64,000 bases of DNA from Clostridia bacterium (GTDB lineage: Bacteria > Bacillota > Clostridia > Oscillospirales > CAG-382): positions 12,170-76,169 of the forward strand of contig JAFOBR010000013.1 in NCBI GenBank assembly GCA_017381715.1. The letters are read 5' to 3'. The notes beneath the pieces are model-generated. The model was not told the DNA's origin. It did not search any database and saw only the letters and a program-made list of their open reading frames with translations. The position numbers and the translations under genes were made by a program. Each line of letters starts with the position of its first letter. Position 1 is the stretch's first letter. Positions 40,219 through 53,736 of this stretch are shown here, one piece after another.

Positions 40219-41244
40219 ATGACATACGCTTCAATAACACAAAACATTTACAACGATAACAAAAAAACCTATAAAAAGGCTAAGTCCCGTATATGCTGGG
40301 TAATATTTGCGGCGTGTTTTTGTCTTGCTCTGCTTAATTTTCTGGGGTATATCATAAGCGTACCTTTGAGCAAGATAATTCCCTACGTTGAAGAGGTTAT
40401 GCCCCTTACAACCTTTGATCTGCTGTTAAGCATGGGAATGTACATTTTTTGTCTTGTCTTCCCCTTTGCCATTGCAATGATTCCGTGCAAAACAAAGATA
40501 AGATCAATTTTCCCTATAAAAGCCCGTCTTACCAAAAATCCCATAGGATATACTCTGTTCGTTTTCGGTATATGCATACTGTTTAACCTTTTTATGAACT
40601 TGCTGTTTCCCTGGTACCGTGACGTTTTTGTTGCGGAGCCGGAAATATACGAAAGCACCACCGATATTATTCTATACTTTATAAGTGCCGCGGTTTTACC
40701 TGCAATATTCGAAGAATTGGTGTTCAGAGGAATTTGCATATCCTGCCTGCGCCCTGTCGGTACGAAATTTGCAGTTATAGTTTCTGCCGCAATTTTCGGA
40801 CTTGCCCACGTTGACCCGCTTCAGAGTATGTTTGCATTTCTGTTCGGTCTGCTTATAGGCGGAGCATTCGTTGCCACCGGTTCTATTTGGCCCGGTGTAC
40901 TGTTGCACTTCTTCAACAACTCCGTTTCCGTAATTTCCGGTTACGGCCACGATGCGGTCCTGTACTTTTACGGACTGCTTATTATGGGTGCGATGGCGTA
41001 CTCTCTTGTATATCTTTACAAATTCTCAAAGCTGCCTGGAAGATTTCCCATTCTGGTTAAAAACGAAAGAGAAAGTCTTCTTACGGGAAGCGGTTTTACA
41101 CCGATACGCGCTCTTTTTTCCAACGTATGGACGTATTTCTTTATTATCCTTTATTTCGCTGCGGTGATGATACGCTTTTTCCCCGAAACATTATCATATA
41201 TCTTACTTGCTGTATCTTCCCTGTTCGGTGCTTCGGTTAAGTAA
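40219..41244 (+). CDS. CPBP family intramembrane glutamic endopeptidase (CAAX protease / Abi family)
   Basis: Motifs are ...PAIFEELVFRG..., ...FGLAHV... and ...HFFNN.... ATG 40219 is preferred because the track start at 40198 lies in the ppdK terminator. Confidence 0.85.
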   Translation: MTYASITQNIYNDNKKTYKKAKSRICWVIFAACFCLALLNFLGYIISVPLSKIIPYVEEVMPLTTFDLLLSMGMYIFCLVFPFAIAMIPCKTKIRSIFPIKARLTKNPIGYTLFVFGICILFNLFMNLLFPWYRDVFVAEPEIYESTTDIILYFISAAVLPAIFEELVFRGICISCLRPVGTKFAVIVSAAIFGLAHVDPLQSMFAFLFGLLIGGAFVATGSIWPGVLLHFFNNSVSVISGYGHDAVLYFYGLLIMGAMAYSLVYLYKFSKLPGRFPILVKNERESLLTGSGFTPIRALFSNVWTYFFIILYFAAVMIRFFPETLSYILLAVSSLFGASVK

Positions 41245-41261
41245 TGGAAGGGAATTTACGG

Positions 41262-41735
41262 ATGAAAGAAAAGTTTATGCGCCGCGCTATGAATTACGCC
41301 CGCAAAGCTGCTGAAAAAGGCGAAGTGCCCGTTGGTGCTGTAATAGTAAAGGACGGGAAAATAATAGCTTCCGGATATAATAAACGGGAAGAAAAGAAAA
41401 ACGCCCTTATGCACGCAGAGATGATCGCCATTGACCGAGCCTGCAAAAAGCTGGGAGCTTGGCGGCTTGAGGAATGTGAACTTTACGTAACCCTTGAGCC
41501 CTGCCCCATGTGCGCAGGCGCTGTAGCAAATGCCCGTATAAAAAAAGTATATTTCGGCGCTTACGATACCAAAATGGGCGCTATGAGCAGTGTTATTGAT
41601 TTAAGCAAATATAATTTCAACCACCATTTCGAAGCAGAGGGCGGCATCCTTAAGGATGAATGTGCTTTCCTGCTTTCGGATTTTTTCAAAAAACTAAGAA
41701 ATAAAAACGAAAGGCAATGCGCAAATGAACAATAA
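41262..41735 (+). CDS. tadA: tRNA-specific adenosine deaminase
   Basis: ...GEVPVGAVIV...HAEMIAI...LEPCPMCAGA... is the CDA zinc motif. ATG 41262 is 7 nt after GGAAGGGA; the track start is 41244. Confidence 0.9.
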   Translation: MKEKFMRRAMNYARKAAEKGEVPVGAVIVKDGKIIASGYNKREEKKNALMHAEMIAIDRACKKLGAWRLEECELYVTLEPCPMCAGAVANARIKKVYFGAYDTKMGAMSSVIDLSKYNFNHHFEAEGGILKDECAFLLSDFFKKLRNKNERQCANEQ

Positions 41736-43353
41736 AGAAAAGTTTTATATTACAACCGCCATTGCATATACCTCAAAGCTTCCACATATCGGCAATATTT
41801 ACGAAATAATACTTACGGATGCCATTGCCAGATATAAAAAGAAAAAGGGCTATGACGTATTTTTTCTGACCGGTACCGACGAACACGGACAGAAGATTCA
41901 ATCTGAGGCGGAAGCAAGCGGTGTTACTCCTCAGGAGTACGTTGATAAGATCGCAGGAGGAATAAAGGACCTTTGGGATCTTTACCAGTGCGAATATGAT
42001 AAATTCATACGTACCACCGATAAACAGCATGAAAAAGTAGTAAGCCATATCTATACCAAGCTTTATGAGCAGGGCGATATTTACAAGAGCGCATACGAAG
42101 GTCATTACTGCACTCCCTGCGAATCCTTCTGGACAGATTCCCAGCTTGTAGACGGAAAGTGCCCCGATTGCGGCAGAGAAGTAAAAAAAGCAAAGGAAGA
42201 GGCTTACTTCCTTCGTCTTTCCAAGTATGCTGATAAGCTGCTTGAGTACTACGAATCCCACCCCGAATTTATTACTCCCGTTTCCAGAAAGAACGAGATG
42301 GTAAACAACTTCTTAAGGCCGGGACTTCAGGACCTGTGCGTATCCAGAAGCAGCTTTACATGGGGCGTTCCTTTAGAATTTGACCCCAAGCACGTTTCCT
42401 ACGTTTGGATAGACGCGCTTTCCAACTATATAACCGCTATCGGCTATGATACGGAAAACCCCGATGAACTCTATAATAAGCTGTGGCCTGCAGACCTTCA
42501 CGTTATCGGCAAGGATATAGTTCGTTTCCACACAATATACTGGCCCATAATCCTTATGGCGCTTAACGTTCCCCTGCCCAAAAAGGTTTTGGGACACCCT
42601 TGGCTTCTCTTCGGCGAAAACAAAATGTCCAAATCCCGCGGCAACGTGCTTTACGGCGATAAGCTGGCAGAGCAGTTCGGTGTTGATGCGGTAAGATATT
42701 ATCTCCTTTCCGAAATGGGCTTTTATAACGACGGAAGCATTACCTACGAAAGCCTGATCGCACGTACCAATTCCGACCTTGCAAATATAATAGGAAACCT
42801 GGTAAGCCGTACTTCCGCAATGATCAAGCAGTATTTCGGCGGTACCGTACCCGCACCCACTTCTGCTGTTGGCGAAGCTGACGAAACCCTTAAAAACGCT
42901 GTTTCCGCCGCAAAGGAAGCATTCATGGCGAAGATGGACGAATATCTTGTAGCAGACGCTTCCGAAGCAGTGCTTAACGGATTTAAGGCTTGTAACAAGT
43001 ATATTGACGAGACCACTCCCTGGGTGCTTGCAAAGAGCGAAGAAAGCAGAGACAGACTTGCTACCGTAATGGCAAATCTGGTACAGAGTATTCGTATCTG
43101 CACTGCAATGCTTTATCCCTATATTCCTTCTACCGCAAAGCGTATTTCCGAAGTATTTGCTTATGCGGAAGATGCTTACGATTACGATAAGCTGGGCTTT
43201 GATTACAAGGTTGACGGCGTAACCGTAAACGCAGACGGCGCAAAGCTTTTTGAGCGTATAGACGAAAAGAAGTTTATGGCGGCTATCGAAGCAGAGCAAA
43301 AGGAAAAAGAAAAAGAACGCAAAAAAGAAGAAAAGAAGGCTGAAAAAGCCTAA
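41725..43353 (+). CDS. metG: Methionine--tRNA ligase, catalytic and anticodon-binding body, ending at an in-frame TAA
   Basis: The ORF is 542 aa. It has the HIGH-type ...YTSKLPHIGNIYE..., a zinc knuckle CTPCESFW...CPDCG and KMSKS. The ORF ends in a K/E-rich linker, and the same frame continues into the C-terminal domain. Confidence 0.9.
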   Translation: MNNKEKFYITTAIAYTSKLPHIGNIYEIILTDAIARYKKKKGYDVFFLTGTDEHGQKIQSEAEASGVTPQEYVDKIAGGIKDLWDLYQCEYDKFIRTTDKQHEKVVSHIYTKLYEQGDIYKSAYEGHYCTPCESFWTDSQLVDGKCPDCGREVKKAKEEAYFLRLSKYADKLLEYYESHPEFITPVSRKNEMVNNFLRPGLQDLCVSRSSFTWGVPLEFDPKHVSYVWIDALSNYITAIGYDTENPDELYNKLWPADLHVIGKDIVRFHTIYWPIILMALNVPLPKKVLGHPWLLFGENKMSKSRGNVLYGDKLAEQFGVDAVRYYLLSEMGFYNDGSITYESLIARTNSDLANIIGNLVSRTSAMIKQYFGGTVPAPTSAVGEADETLKNAVSAAKEAFMAKMDEYLVADASEAVLNGFKACNKYIDETTPWVLAKSEESRDRLATVMANLVQSIRICTAMLYPYIPSTAKRISEVFAYAEDAYDYDKLGFDYKVDGVTVNADGAKLFERIDEKKFMAAIEAEQKEKEKERKKEEKKAEKA

Positions 43354-43374
43354 AAGAAGGCTGAAAAAGCAAAA
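43333..43374 (+). repeat. 21-nt (7-codon) tandem duplication containing the metG stop
   Basis: AAGAAGGCTGAAAAAGCCTAA (43333-43353) is followed directly by AAGAAGGCTGAAAAAGCAAAA (43354-43374). The copies differ only at 43350 (C/A) and 43351 (T/A). Confidence 0.9.
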
Positions 43375-43692
43375 GAGCTTATCGGTATTGATGATTTTGC
43401 AAAGGTAGAGCTTACCGTAGGCAAGATACTCACCTGCGAAAAGGTGGAAATATCCGATAAGCTGTTAAAGCTTACCGTTGATATCGGCGAAACACGTCAG
43501 GTGGTTTCCGGTATCGCAAAATGGTATGCGCCCGAAGCTCTTATCGGCAAGAAGATAATACTCGTTTCCAACCTCCGTCCCGCAGTTCTTCGCGGTGTAG
43601 AGAGCAACGGTATGATCCTTGCGTCCGGTGAAGATGAGGTTAAGGTTGTCTTTATTGACGACAGCGTTCCTGTGGGAAGTAAGGTAAGATAA
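43354..43692 (+). other. Detached MetRS C-terminal tRNA-binding OB-fold domain (EMAP/Trbp111/CsaA-like), in frame behind the TAA
   Basis: The same frame as metG (41725 and 43444 are both 1 mod 3) has no further stop. The translation is KKAEKAKELIGIDDFAKVELTVGKILTCEKVEISDKLLKLTVDIGETRQVVSGIAKWYAPEALIGKKIILVSNLRPAVLRGVESNGMILASGED.... The first canonical start is GTG 43444 (track ORF 43444..43692), which lies inside the domain. Confidence 0.8.
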
Positions 43693-44453
43693 TGTTTGAT
43701 TCCCACGCTCACTACGATGATAAGCAGTTTGACGAGGACAGGGATATACTTATCTCTTCCCTCTTTGAACAAGGCGTTAAAGGATTTTTAAACGCATCTT
43801 CCGATATAGCATCTTCCTACGCTTCTCTCGCTTTGGCACACAAATACGAAAACGTATATGCCGCCGTGGGTATTCATCCCCACGAAGCGGCTGAAGTAAG
43901 CGAAGACTGGCTGAACGAGCTGGACAAAATTTCAAGTGATAAAAAAGCTGTGGCTATCGGCGAGATCGGCTTGGATTACCACTATGATTTTTCTCCCCGC
44001 GACATACAAATGAAGGTGTTTGAAGCACAGATGGCGTTTGCGGAAAAGAAGAATATGCCGGTAGTAATCCACGACCGTGAAGCTCACGGAGATACGCTTG
44101 CGGTAATAGACAAATTCCCCAACGTAAAAGGCGTGCTTCACAGCTTTTCCGGCAGCTACGAAATGGCTGAATACCTGGTTCGCAAGGGCTGGTATATTTC
44201 CTTTTCCGGTTCGGTTACCTTTAAGACAGCGGAAAAACTACGCCACGCAGTGACTGCGGTTCCCATAGACCGCGTTATGTGTGAAACGGATGCGCCGTAT
44301 CTTACTCCCGTACCCTTAAGGGGCAAGCGAAATGACAGCGTTAAGATGCGTCATACCGTTGAAAAGCTTGCGGAAATATACGGTATTTCCTTTGAGGAGA
44401 TGGCGGAAATCTGTTTAAACAACGCTTATACCCTGTTCGGTATAGTAAAATAA
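43692..44453 (+). CDS. tatD: TatD family metal-dependent hydrolase/DNase
   Basis: The protein is 253 aa, with MFDSHAHYDD..., ...EIGLDYHY... and ...VIHDREAHGD.... The metG-tatD order matches Bacillus (metS-yabD). Confidence 0.9.
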   Translation: MFDSHAHYDDKQFDEDRDILISSLFEQGVKGFLNASSDIASSYASLALAHKYENVYAAVGIHPHEAAEVSEDWLNELDKISSDKKAVAIGEIGLDYHYDFSPRDIQMKVFEAQMAFAEKKNMPVVIHDREAHGDTLAVIDKFPNVKGVLHSFSGSYEMAEYLVRKGWYISFSGSVTFKTAEKLRHAVTAVPIDRVMCETDAPYLTPVPLRGKRNDSVKMRHTVEKLAEIYGISFEEMAEICLNNAYTLFGIVK

Positions 44454-44598: not shown

Positions 44599-45618
44599 AT
44601 GGCAGTAAAAGTTGCAATCAATGGTTTCGGCCGTATCGGTCGTCTCGCATTCAGACAGATGTTCGGCGCAAAGGGTTATCAGGTAGTTGCTATCAACGAC
44701 CTTACCAGCCCCTCTATGCTCGCTCATCTTATCAAGTATGACTCTGCACAGGGCAGATACAACCACGAAGTTTCCGCTAACGACGAAGAAGGCACCATCA
44801 CCGTAGACGGTAAGACCATCAAGATCTACGCTGAAAAGGATGCTAACAACTGTCCTTGGAAGAAGCTCAAGGTTGACGTAGTTCTCGAATGCACCGGTTT
44901 CTACACCAGCAAGGCTAAGGCTTCTGCTCACATCAACGCAGGCGCTAAGAAGGTAGTTATCTCTGCTCCCGCAGGAAACGATCTTCCTACCATCGTTTAC
45001 AATGTTAACGAAAACACCCTTACCGCAGAAGACAACGTAATTTCCGCTGCTTCCTGCACCACCAACTGCCTCGCTCCCATGGCTAAGGCTCTCAATGATT
45101 ACGCTCCCATCCAGAGCGGTATCATGACCACCATCCACGCTTTCACCGGCGACCAGATGGTTCTCGACGGTCCTCACAGAAAGGGTGACCTCCGCCGCGC
45201 TCGTGCAGCAGCTGTTAACATCGTTCCTAACTCTACCGGCGCTGCAAAGGCTATCGGTCTTGTTATCCCCGAACTCAACGGCAAGCTCATCGGCTCCGCT
45301 CAGAGAGTTCCCGTTCCTACCGGTTCTTCCACCCTTCTCGTTGCAGTTGTTAAGGGCAAGGACGTTACCAAGGAAGGCATCAACGCTGCTATGAAGGCTG
45401 CTTCCAACGAATCCTTCGGTTACACTGAAGAACAGCTCGTTTCCAGCGATATCGTTGGTATCACCTACGGTTCTCTGTTCGATGCAACTCAGACCATGGT
45501 TTCCAAGATCGACGATGATACCTATCAGGTACAGGTAGTTTCTTGGTACGATAACGAAAACAGCTACACCAGCCAGATGGTTCGTACTATCAAGTACTTC
45601 GCTGAACTCAGCAAATAA
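44599..45618 (+). CDS. gap: Type I glyceraldehyde-3-phosphate dehydrogenase
   Basis: The protein is 339 aa, with [19 protein letters not shown]... and the active site ...[12 protein letters not shown].... The RBS is GGAGGA. Confidence 0.97.
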
Positions 45619-45637
45619 GAAGCATTTTAAAAATTCA

Positions 45638-51575: not shown

Positions 51576-52121
51576 TTACCGTCCTCCTTCACAGTAGTTT
51601 TTAAGCTTTTCCAACGCACGCTGATATTTTTTGCGCACCAATACCGTGTTCTTTTCGATTACGTTTGCTATCTCCGAATGAGAAAGACCTGCGTAAATAC
51701 GAAGCTTTACTATCAGCTTTTCTTCATCGGAAAGAGTGTTCAGCGCATCCCGAAGCATAATTTGTTGAAGCGTTTGGGGCTCAAAAGCACTTTGAGCTTT
51801 TTCTTTTTCCGAAATTTCTTCCAAAGATAAAGTGTGCTTTTTTTCTTTGACCTTGTCTACAGCGCTGTTTCTTGTTACCTTCAATACTCACGCTTTAGGG
51901 TTTGTTCCCTTTTTATAGGTATGTGAAAGGCGGAGGATCCGTATCATCGTATCCTGCAGCACGTCTTCTGCTTCCCCAAAATCTCCCGTTATCTGGTATG
52001 CAACGGAAAGTATCATACGCCCGTATTCATTATAAACACGTTCAAGTGCTTTTTTGTTTCCCGAAGCGATTTCCGTAATGGCAATATCGCAAGGGTCTGC
52101 TAAATTCAAAAACAGGATCAT
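51576..52121 (-). pseudogene. ECF sigma factor interrupted by an in-frame TGA at the conserved Trp codon
   Basis: Track ORFs 51888..52121 (region 2: ...EAEDVLQDTMIRILR...GTNPKA*) and 51576..51884 (...VLKVTRNSAVDKVK...; region 4: ...LSHSEIANVIEKNTVLVRKKYQRALEKL) are in the same frame. Both ends are 0 mod 3, and only TGA 51888-51890 separates them. Confidence 0.8.
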
Positions 52122-52282: not shown

Positions 52283-53736
52283 TTAATCATCGGTGTCCCG
52301 CTCATAGCATATTATCTCGCCGGTATCTGCATTCACCTCGGCTTCGTATTCGTATTTGCCGGAAATGAATTCTATCTCGTATTTCCATACGTTATCATCG
52401 TGATCAAGCTCAATATTCAAACGGGAAATATCATCTTCCGCAAGTCCCGCACGGTCGAGCACCTTTTTAAGTGCTTGTTCTTTTGTAATAAGTCCGTTTT
52501 CTTCGGAATTACCGCTTGAATTATCTTCATAATGATAATATCTGTCCGATTCCACGGAGAGAACTTCGCGCGTCTTTGCGTTAACCTCGAATTCGTATTC
52601 GATACCCTTATAAGAAACCTCGGCTTCGCATATGAGCACGCCGTCATCGTATTGGAACTTATATTCAAACCGTTCCACTCCTGTCTTTCTGGGCAGTATG
52701 CGGATATAATATCCTCGACCTCTTTTGCCGAAACGTATTCTCCTACAGCGCCACCGATCAAAACATCTCTGTTCTTCTTTTCACAGGAGATGATGTTGCC
52801 GTTTACGGCATTTACTTCTATCTCGTATCTAACACCTTCGACAACAAATTCAACCTCATAAATCATCATACCGTCATCGTGTTCGAACTCTACCTTTATG
52901 CTTCCGTATACCATATCTTCGGTAACCTTTGCATACTCAAGGGCGGCAGCTTTGGATTTTTCAACACCTATATACGCCTTATCGCTGGCAGAACCTACAA
53001 ATTCTCCCTTAAGTTCTGCGCCTATCTCTTGCAACAGCAGGGACAGCTCATTTATTCCCAGTTTAGCCAGAGATTCGGGATCGTATTTTGCGTTATTTGC
53101 GCAGAGAGAAAGGATAAGCTGTGCTTTGCCCAAGGAAATGCCCAGTTTATCTGCAAGATATGCGGAATCGGTATCGTTTTTATCTATCTGCAAAGCGATA
53201 ACCGCACCCTCTGCATTCTCGGTGGTTATAAGACCGCTGATAATAGCATTAAGCTTTTCACGCAAGGCGGCATTTTTATCCGCATTTCCGTTATCAACGC
53301 TTACCAGCACCGAATTTGCCAGTTCATCAATATATCCGCCGGTTATCATAGATCCGATAAGGGCATTGAGAGCAACCTCTATCTTTGTTCCCGTAAGGTC
53401 CATATTGCCAATGATTTTTTGACCGTCCTCATTCAGCGCCTTTATATCTACCACAACGTCTTTTCTGTTTAATTTAATTTCAATACTGGGGTTAACATCA
53501 ATGGATACCACGCTGGCAACAGCGTTGTTCCCCATATATGCCAGCACGCCTGCAAAAACACCGAACAGCATAACGAATGCTGCCGCGGCGGCAACGATAG
53601 CTATGGGTAATCTTCTTTTTTGTTTCACGAGCATCGCCGTTCCTTTCCCGCTTACGCTGTCAGAAACAACGGTTTCGAGAATATCGGGGGTGATAGCTGT
53701 AAAAGCATTTTTAATTTTGTTTTCTGTTTGTTTCAT
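52283..53736 (-). pseudogene. Anti-sigma-like membrane protein with three PepSY domains, split by a 1-nt frameshift
   Basis: ORF 52417..53736 gives sensible protein up to ...AKEVEDIISAYCPE and then 87 codons of implausible read-on. ORF 52283..52678, offset by one frame, continues with (V)ERFEYKFQYDDGVLICEAEVSYKGIEYEFEVNAKT... and a third PepSY domain. The junction is at the A-run ccagAAAgacagg (52681-52693). Confidence 0.8.

Follow-up and report, generated by a model that had tools for sequence, protein, structure and literature searches.

The window studied here is a stretch of 64,000 nucleotides from the genome assembly of a Clostridia bacterium, and in it the gene for methionyl-tRNA synthetase (MetRS), metG, is interrupted by one stop codon. 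A sequence-only reading of this DNA had traced the metG frame from position 41725 to a TAA at 43351-43353 and from there, without another stop, to 43692. Translation gave the same picture. The ORF starts with the ATG at 41725 and is terminated by the TAA after 542 codons (ORF list and translation), and the frame past this stop stays open for 112 codons until it ends with a second TAA at 43690-43692, which brings the conceptual total to 542 + 1 + 112 = 655 codons. The TAA at 43351-43353 is genuinely in the sequence of this assembly. The features of the locus and of one other disrupted gene are given in Table 1.

Table 1. Features of the metG locus and of the second disrupted gene in the window
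Feature	Position	Strand	Basis or remark
metG core: class I catalytic and anticodon-binding domains and most of the Lys/Glu/Ala linker; 542 codons	41725..43350	+	ORF list, translation, Pfam
In-frame TAA; T at 43351 in place of the G of GAA (Glu543); assembly-private	43351..43353	+	direct reading
Two 21-nt tandem units inside a degenerate period-21 array	43333..43374	+	array is 43303-43376
Detached tail: remainder of the linker and complete Trbp111-like OB-fold tRNA-binding/dimerisation domain; 112 codons and natural TAA	43354..43692	+	PF01588
82-codon GTG ORF; the sole ORF of the tail with a canonical start	43444..43692	+	not credible as a gene
Short inverted repeat AGGCT-GAAAA-AGCCT	43337..43351	.	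terminator-like scan, folds of the T and G versions
tatD	43692..44453	+	PF01026, 1.9e-84
RsgI-like anti-sigma factor with PepSY domains	52417-53736	-	484 aa in L096 and L098; 439-aa ORF in the window

The core of the window metG has the class I catalytic domain (PF09334, tRNA-synt_1g, 3.6e-110), and in its translation the HIGH-type motif is present as HIGN at residues 21-24 and KMSKS at residues 300-304, together with one CxxC...CxxC zinc knuckle. The MetRS anticodon-binding domain is also present (PF19303, Anticodon_3, 6e-09, residues 379-490), and solved cores could be aligned through residue about 490-532. The 112 codons past the stop cover the whole PF01588 (tRNA_bind) profile, positions 1-96, with E = 3.8e-28. 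Such a match is far beyond chance and bears out the claim that a complete OB-fold tRNA-binding domain lies downstream of the TAA. In the window this domain is not in one ORF with the core, as the TAA at 43351-53 intervenes, whereas it is so in 5/5 near-identical or close assemblies and in 159/159 distant relatives. The fact that core and tRNA_bind domain share an ORF in all comparators indicates that the window locus is a one-piece metG with one base changed.

At its 3' end, the natural stop of metG overlaps the ATG of tatD as TAATG (43690-43694), and the same arrangement was found in all near-identical contigs. This overlap suggests that tatD is translationally coupled to full-length metG. 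The metG start in turn lies 11 nt inside the end of a tadA-like deaminase ORF at 41244-41735 (overlap 41725-41735). Judged from these overlapping junctions, the genes tadA, metG, and tatD may form a translationally coupled run.

Compared with known systems, the window metG has the domain order of the one-piece MetRS of the Bacillus, Staphylococcus, and Clostridia type (9SHC, 665 aa). It also has the HIGN and KMSKS motifs and the single zinc knuckle of this type, and its 655 codons equal the length of the conspecific proteins. Core and tail each have a match in 9SHC (query 4-532 for the core; tail 7-110 to chain 555-663), and inspection of the alignment by eye gives about 50% identity between the core and the Staphylococcus aureus enzyme (7WPI, 3.5e-159). 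The difference from a one-piece MetRS is a single base, which gives TAA for GAA (Glu543) in the linker. MetRS forms that end near this point have been crystallised: residue 549 of the 551-aa Escherichia coli fragment 1QQT is aligned to residue 527 of the window protein, and both this fragment and the 500-aa Thermus thermophilus fragment 1A8H are active monomers, truncated by proteolysis or genetically, and lack the tRNA-binding/dimerisation domain that the window product would also lack if the stop is real. These fragments are laboratory constructs, whereas the truncation in the window would be due to a putative natural nonsense codon. The short MetRS of Aquifex aeolicus (2CSX, 497 aa) also aligns with the window core (8.8e-128) and is fully covered by it. 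The alignments show that the 542-aa product reaches past all crystallised active MetRS cores, and they support the earlier claim that a MetRS truncated at this site would keep a complete active core.

The closest solved homologue of the tail is Trbp111, the free-standing 'MetRS beta subunit' (1PYB, 8VTZ), and the match to 1PYB (7.7e-30) is nearly end-to-end, pairing tail residues 6-111 with residues 3-110 of Trbp111. In Aquifex, however, the OB protein is encoded by an independent gene with its own start, whereas the window tail has no start codon with a ribosome-binding site (RBS) and no relative in which the gene is split. CsaA and YgjH are other free-standing OB proteins that share the PF01588 fold, but they gave weaker matches (3ERS, 5.5e-14; 2NZH, 7.1e-10) and are encoded by separate genes elsewhere in genomes, not in frame beside metG. 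Between them, the Pfam and PDB sequence matches identify the domains unambiguously.

The stop codon lies in a repetitive part of the gene. As had been noted from the sequence, the first copy of a tandem repeat ends with the TAA. The two units, 43333-43353 and 43354-43374, are identical at 19/21 positions, and they belong to a period-21 array at 43303-43376 (3.7 copies, 77% matches) that codes for a low-complexity linker of Lys, Glu, and Ala. The sequence-only reading had connected the stop with this duplication. This connection was not upheld: all five comparators (L081 and L082-L085) have intact alleles that contain this 21-nt repeat base by base, with GAA at the stop position. The presence of an identical repeat in intact alleles means that the repeat predates the stop and is unrelated to it, and duplication as the origin of the TAA is ruled out. 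Among the members of the MetRS protein cluster described below, the linker varies in both sequence and length (653, 655, and 657 aa for the whole protein), as expected, judging from these sequences, for a slippage-prone and weakly constrained spacer. The T at 43351 turns an imperfect inverted repeat, AGGCT-GAAAA-AGCCG, into a perfect one, with 5 instead of 4 pairs.

The most direct information comes from assemblies of the same or nearly the same strain. Codon 543 is GAA (Glu) in 5/5 independent metagenome assemblies and TAA in the window (43351 G>T). Three of these comparators are 99.7-99.9% identical to the window, one is 98.7% identical (L085), and one is 94% identical (L081). Over window positions 31725-53691, L082 and L083, which come from two other samples, are 99.86-99.87% identical to the window. 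When the whole metG gene is compared with those of L083 and L084, the sole difference is position 43351, T in the window and G in the others, and G is also found at this position in the more diverged L085 and L081. By this comparison, GAA is the ancestral codon at 43351-43353. The sequence-only reading had stated that its claim would fail if resequencing gave a sense codon at 43351. A sense codon is indeed what every other assembly has, but this was found in those assemblies and not by resequencing of the same sample. Both a recent nonsense event and a sequencing error, which the same reading had proposed, survive the comparison, as either would be a single GAA>TAA change that none of the five independent assemblies has.

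The protein records point in the same direction. Across the stop position, the intact 655-aa proteins P0001 and P0127 read ...AEKAEKKAEKAKE... P0127 is present on 5 contigs and equals the conceptual protein of the window except for the E at the stop position. P0001, also intact at 655 aa and 99% identical to the conceptual window protein, is the representative of a 50-member cluster at 90% identity. The cluster members listed are all intact, with 653-657 aa, except for one entry of 459 aa that is marked partial by its source. Exact look-ups of the 542-aa product and of the 82-aa product of the GTG ORF found neither on record anywhere, and the same was true of the GAPDH and PPDK variants of the window. 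A search of the metagenome contig collection with the junction pattern, in which the base at 43351 was left free, gave zero matches, so that neither allele was found there and the result does not discriminate between them. Among the comparators, no independent assembly supports the TAA allele. The 339 nt past the stop have zero substitutions relative to the assemblies that are at least 99.6% identical. This indicates that no decay of the tail is visible and gives no evidence that the tail was ever free of selection.

The window species is an uncultured one, with Oscillospirales-like MAGs from animal guts. In more distant relatives, metG is one ORF through the OB domain in all of the species-representative genomes with a complete locus (79/79; 59-69% identity), and it is one uninterrupted ORF in 80/80 metagenome contigs among the matches listed with P0127 as the query (52-62% identity). 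A split metG was thus found in 0/79 genome relatives, in 0/80 of the listed metagenome relatives, and in 0/5 near-identical or close assemblies. With one ORF in all of these genomes and listed contigs, there is no conserved two-gene arrangement.

A base that is private to one assembly may be an error or a mutation, and the other private changes of the window bear on this. The comparison was widened to 61.5 kb of the window, with contigs from at least 6 other samples, and private changes were counted where at least 3 assemblies overlap. Twelve SNPs and one 1-nt deletion are private to the window, or 0.21 per kb, and the rates of the other assemblies span this value (0-0.32 per kb). Among the private SNP sites are 13388, 39442, 43351, 44731, 52658, 52690, and 61015. 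Eight of the window SNPs are non-synonymous or nonsense and 4 are synonymous; in the other assemblies, 5 private changes are non-synonymous and 15 are synonymous (Fisher p = 0.03, which becomes 0.065 when clustered changes are dropped; the counts are small). A random substitution in metG would be non-synonymous in 74%, a stop in 4.4%, and synonymous in 21.5% of the cases, and the ratio in the window is near this. By this measure, the private changes of the window look unselected. G:C>T:A changes make up 4/12 of the private SNPs in the window (39442, 43351, 44731, and 52690) versus 2/25 in the other assemblies (p = 0.07). This share may be an 8-oxoG signature, which could come from library damage or a mutator alike, and it is suggestive only. 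Of the residues that the remaining private G>T and C>A substitutions alter, GAPDH position 45 has L in only 5 relatives, and its change from L to I is conservative; PPDK is not syntenic in the relatives that were fetched for this conservation comparison.

The private 1-nt deletion lies in a T-run near 52666 and frameshifts the last ~120 residues of the RsgI-like anti-sigma factor. On either side of it, within 35 nt, lies a further private SNP (52658 and 52690), and the consensus around this site looks locally unreliable. Two genes are thus disrupted in about 57 kb of the window relative to 99.9% identical genomes, which is a poor fit to ordinary strain divergence and an easy fit to consensus errors. 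The comparator L084 (ERZ28654981) has a private 1-nt deletion of its own, at the equivalent of 35024, that breaks mfd into ORFs of 660 aa and 509 aa. Disruptive calls confined to a single assembly are thus found in this set of metagenome assemblies. L084 also has a scaffold gap of Ns in PPDK. The GAPDH gene of the window (gap, 44599-45618) contains a hypervariable patch at 45133-45620, where assemblies that share 99.9% identity elsewhere differ by dozens of SNPs. From its pattern, this patch looks like a recombination or gene-conversion tract, or else like an effect of strain mixture or paralogues on the assembly.

The window also contains an internal control. The ECF-type sigma-70 factor gene at 51576-52121 (minus strand) has an in-frame TGA at 51888-51890 that separates region 2 (77 aa) from region 4 (102 aa), in the context ...YKKGTNPKA*VLKVTRNSAVDKV... 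The stop presumably sits at the usual conserved Trp of ECF sigma factors and may be a TGG>TGA change; TGA is the leakiest stop codon. The same TGA is found in every other assembly that spans the site (two), and on this ground we consider it a real allele. As it is common to all assemblies that cover the site, genuine nonsense alleles are reproducible across assemblies in this strain cluster. The metG TAA, unlike the sigma-factor TGA, is not reproduced.

Taken together, the metG TAA is a single G-to-T change private to this assembly, most likely due to a consensus error or a very recent accidental mutation and not to a biological gene split. The gene itself is an ordinary one-piece metG of the Bacillus type, in which the core, the anticodon-binding domain, a Lys/Glu/Ala linker, and a Trbp111-like OB domain follow each other in one protein. 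In this one assembly, the first base of Glu543 is T instead of G, most probably by a consensus error arising in sequencing or in assembly, and on that reading the organism would make the normal dimeric 655-aa MetRS with its function unchanged. The change is a single private base and the repeat around it is older; that the T at 43351 is a consensus error we infer from the comparison of assemblies, and we regard it as probable. We favour a consensus error because the base is private, the relatives are intact, the private changes of the window look unselected, L084 has a singleton disruption of its own, the sigma-factor control is reproducible, and the tail has not decayed. Several points count against it. 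The private rate of 0.21 per kb is not that of an obviously poor assembly, the counts behind the statistics are small, and short-read errors that reach a consensus are more typically homopolymer indels than substitutions. The stop also lies in a variable linker before a dispensable domain, where a real nonsense codon would be tolerable.

This last point leads to the alternative that the strain carries a real and very recent nonsense mutation (GAA>TAA), which we hold to be possible but clearly the less probable explanation. The stop falls in a fast-evolving linker that differs among cluster members of 653, 655, and 657 aa, and it is C-terminal to everything contained in the active crystallised cores and in 2CSX of Aquifex. 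In the account of this domain in PMC11286949 and the references therein, the OB domain enhances aminoacylation and forms the dimer interface of some MetRSs, and it is described as not being part of the MetRS catalytic core. The share of G:C>T:A changes (4/12 versus 2/25, p = 0.07) fits an oxidative or mutator signature as well as library damage. In addition, the T completes a 5-bp inverted repeat, which is a typical outcome of quasi-palindrome template switching; this process may, if the mutation is real, have been the route to the T at 43351, but the evidence is weak. On the other hand, 0/5 further assemblies from this strain or a near-identical one have the allele, and no record of its products was found anywhere. 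If the second private disruption and the excess of non-synonymous changes were all real as well, they would amount to an implausibly high rate of pseudogene formation at 99.9% identity. The sequence downstream has not decayed, so there is also no sign that the allele has persisted.

A nascent or functional split, in which the core and the OB domain would be made as two proteins, like the MetRS and Trbp111 of Aquifex, with reinitiation at a near-cognate codon (ATC 43381 or ATT 43387) or at GTG 43444, is very improbable. It draws on the fact that the tail is a complete domain with the free-standing Trbp111 as its best match, and on a weak AAAGAG motif, which precedes ATC 43381 by 3 nt and ATT 43387 by 9 nt. 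However, a start with an RBS for the whole OB domain is absent from the window. As the sequence-only reading had stated, no canonical start with an RBS precedes the domain, and the first canonical in-frame start past the TAA is GTG 43444, which is codon 31 of the tail. The same reading placed this GTG about 23 codons into the homologous region. The position is correct, but the exact offset is not, as the GTG lies 21 codons past the I of IGIDDF and 25 codons into the stretch aligned to Trbp111. The 18 nt upstream of it, ATACTCACCTGCGAAAAG, have no properly spaced GGAGG-type Shine-Dalgarno site of the kind found before real genes of the window, and none of the possible starts in the tail has one. 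An ORF beginning at this GTG would also miss the part aligned to the first ~28 residues of Trbp111. Without a GGAGG-type start and without these residues of the fold, the tail is not producible as a functional protein. Moreover, the sequence past the stop is the same as in intact alleles, so no start signal has evolved, and the split is absent in 159/159 distant relatives (80 of them among the matches listed) and in all near-identical assemblies. The earlier suggestion of a nascent gene split or a conserved two-gene arrangement was therefore abandoned. It is equally improbable that the TAA is real and represents a first step of MetRS fission, with a monomeric 542-aa MetRS and an orphaned but still intact OB domain of which readthrough or near-cognate reinitiation would yield small amounts.

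Programmed readthrough or recoding of the TAA by a suppressor tRNA or an altered code, which would yield the full-length protein and had also been proposed, has only the open frame and the intact downstream domain in its favour and is ruled out for practical purposes, with a probability close to nil: TAA is the terminator of 32/39 genes in the window, the natural end of metG among them, no tRNA genes or Rfam elements are present in the window, the stop is not conserved in near-identical strains or other relatives, as all comparators have GAA, and we know of no reassignment of TAA in bacteria. Jointly, a functional split and readthrough account for a very small part of the probability.

The finding has more weight for curation than for biology. 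Curators should treat the locus as an intact metG that probably contains a base error, or else mark it low-quality or pseudo pending reads; annotation as a split MetRS or a separate Trbp-like gene is to be avoided. The window also offers a useful control, as near-identical assemblies tell reproducible nonsense alleles, such as the sigma-factor TGA, from assembly-private ones. If the fission reading were true, the locus would be a snapshot of the origin of free-standing Trbp111-like proteins and short MetRS forms. If the stop is simply real, the strain would make a monomeric 542-aa MetRS without the C-terminal OB domain, predicted from the alignment to be active but with weaker tRNA binding, while the tail would be untranslated apart from trace readthrough and tatD would probably lose its translational coupling to metG. 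The effect of such an allele would range from neutral to slightly deleterious, and purging or decay would be its expected fate. The biological weight of the finding is small: it would be at most a tolerated nonsense mutation in a dispensable linker of the MetRS of one strain.
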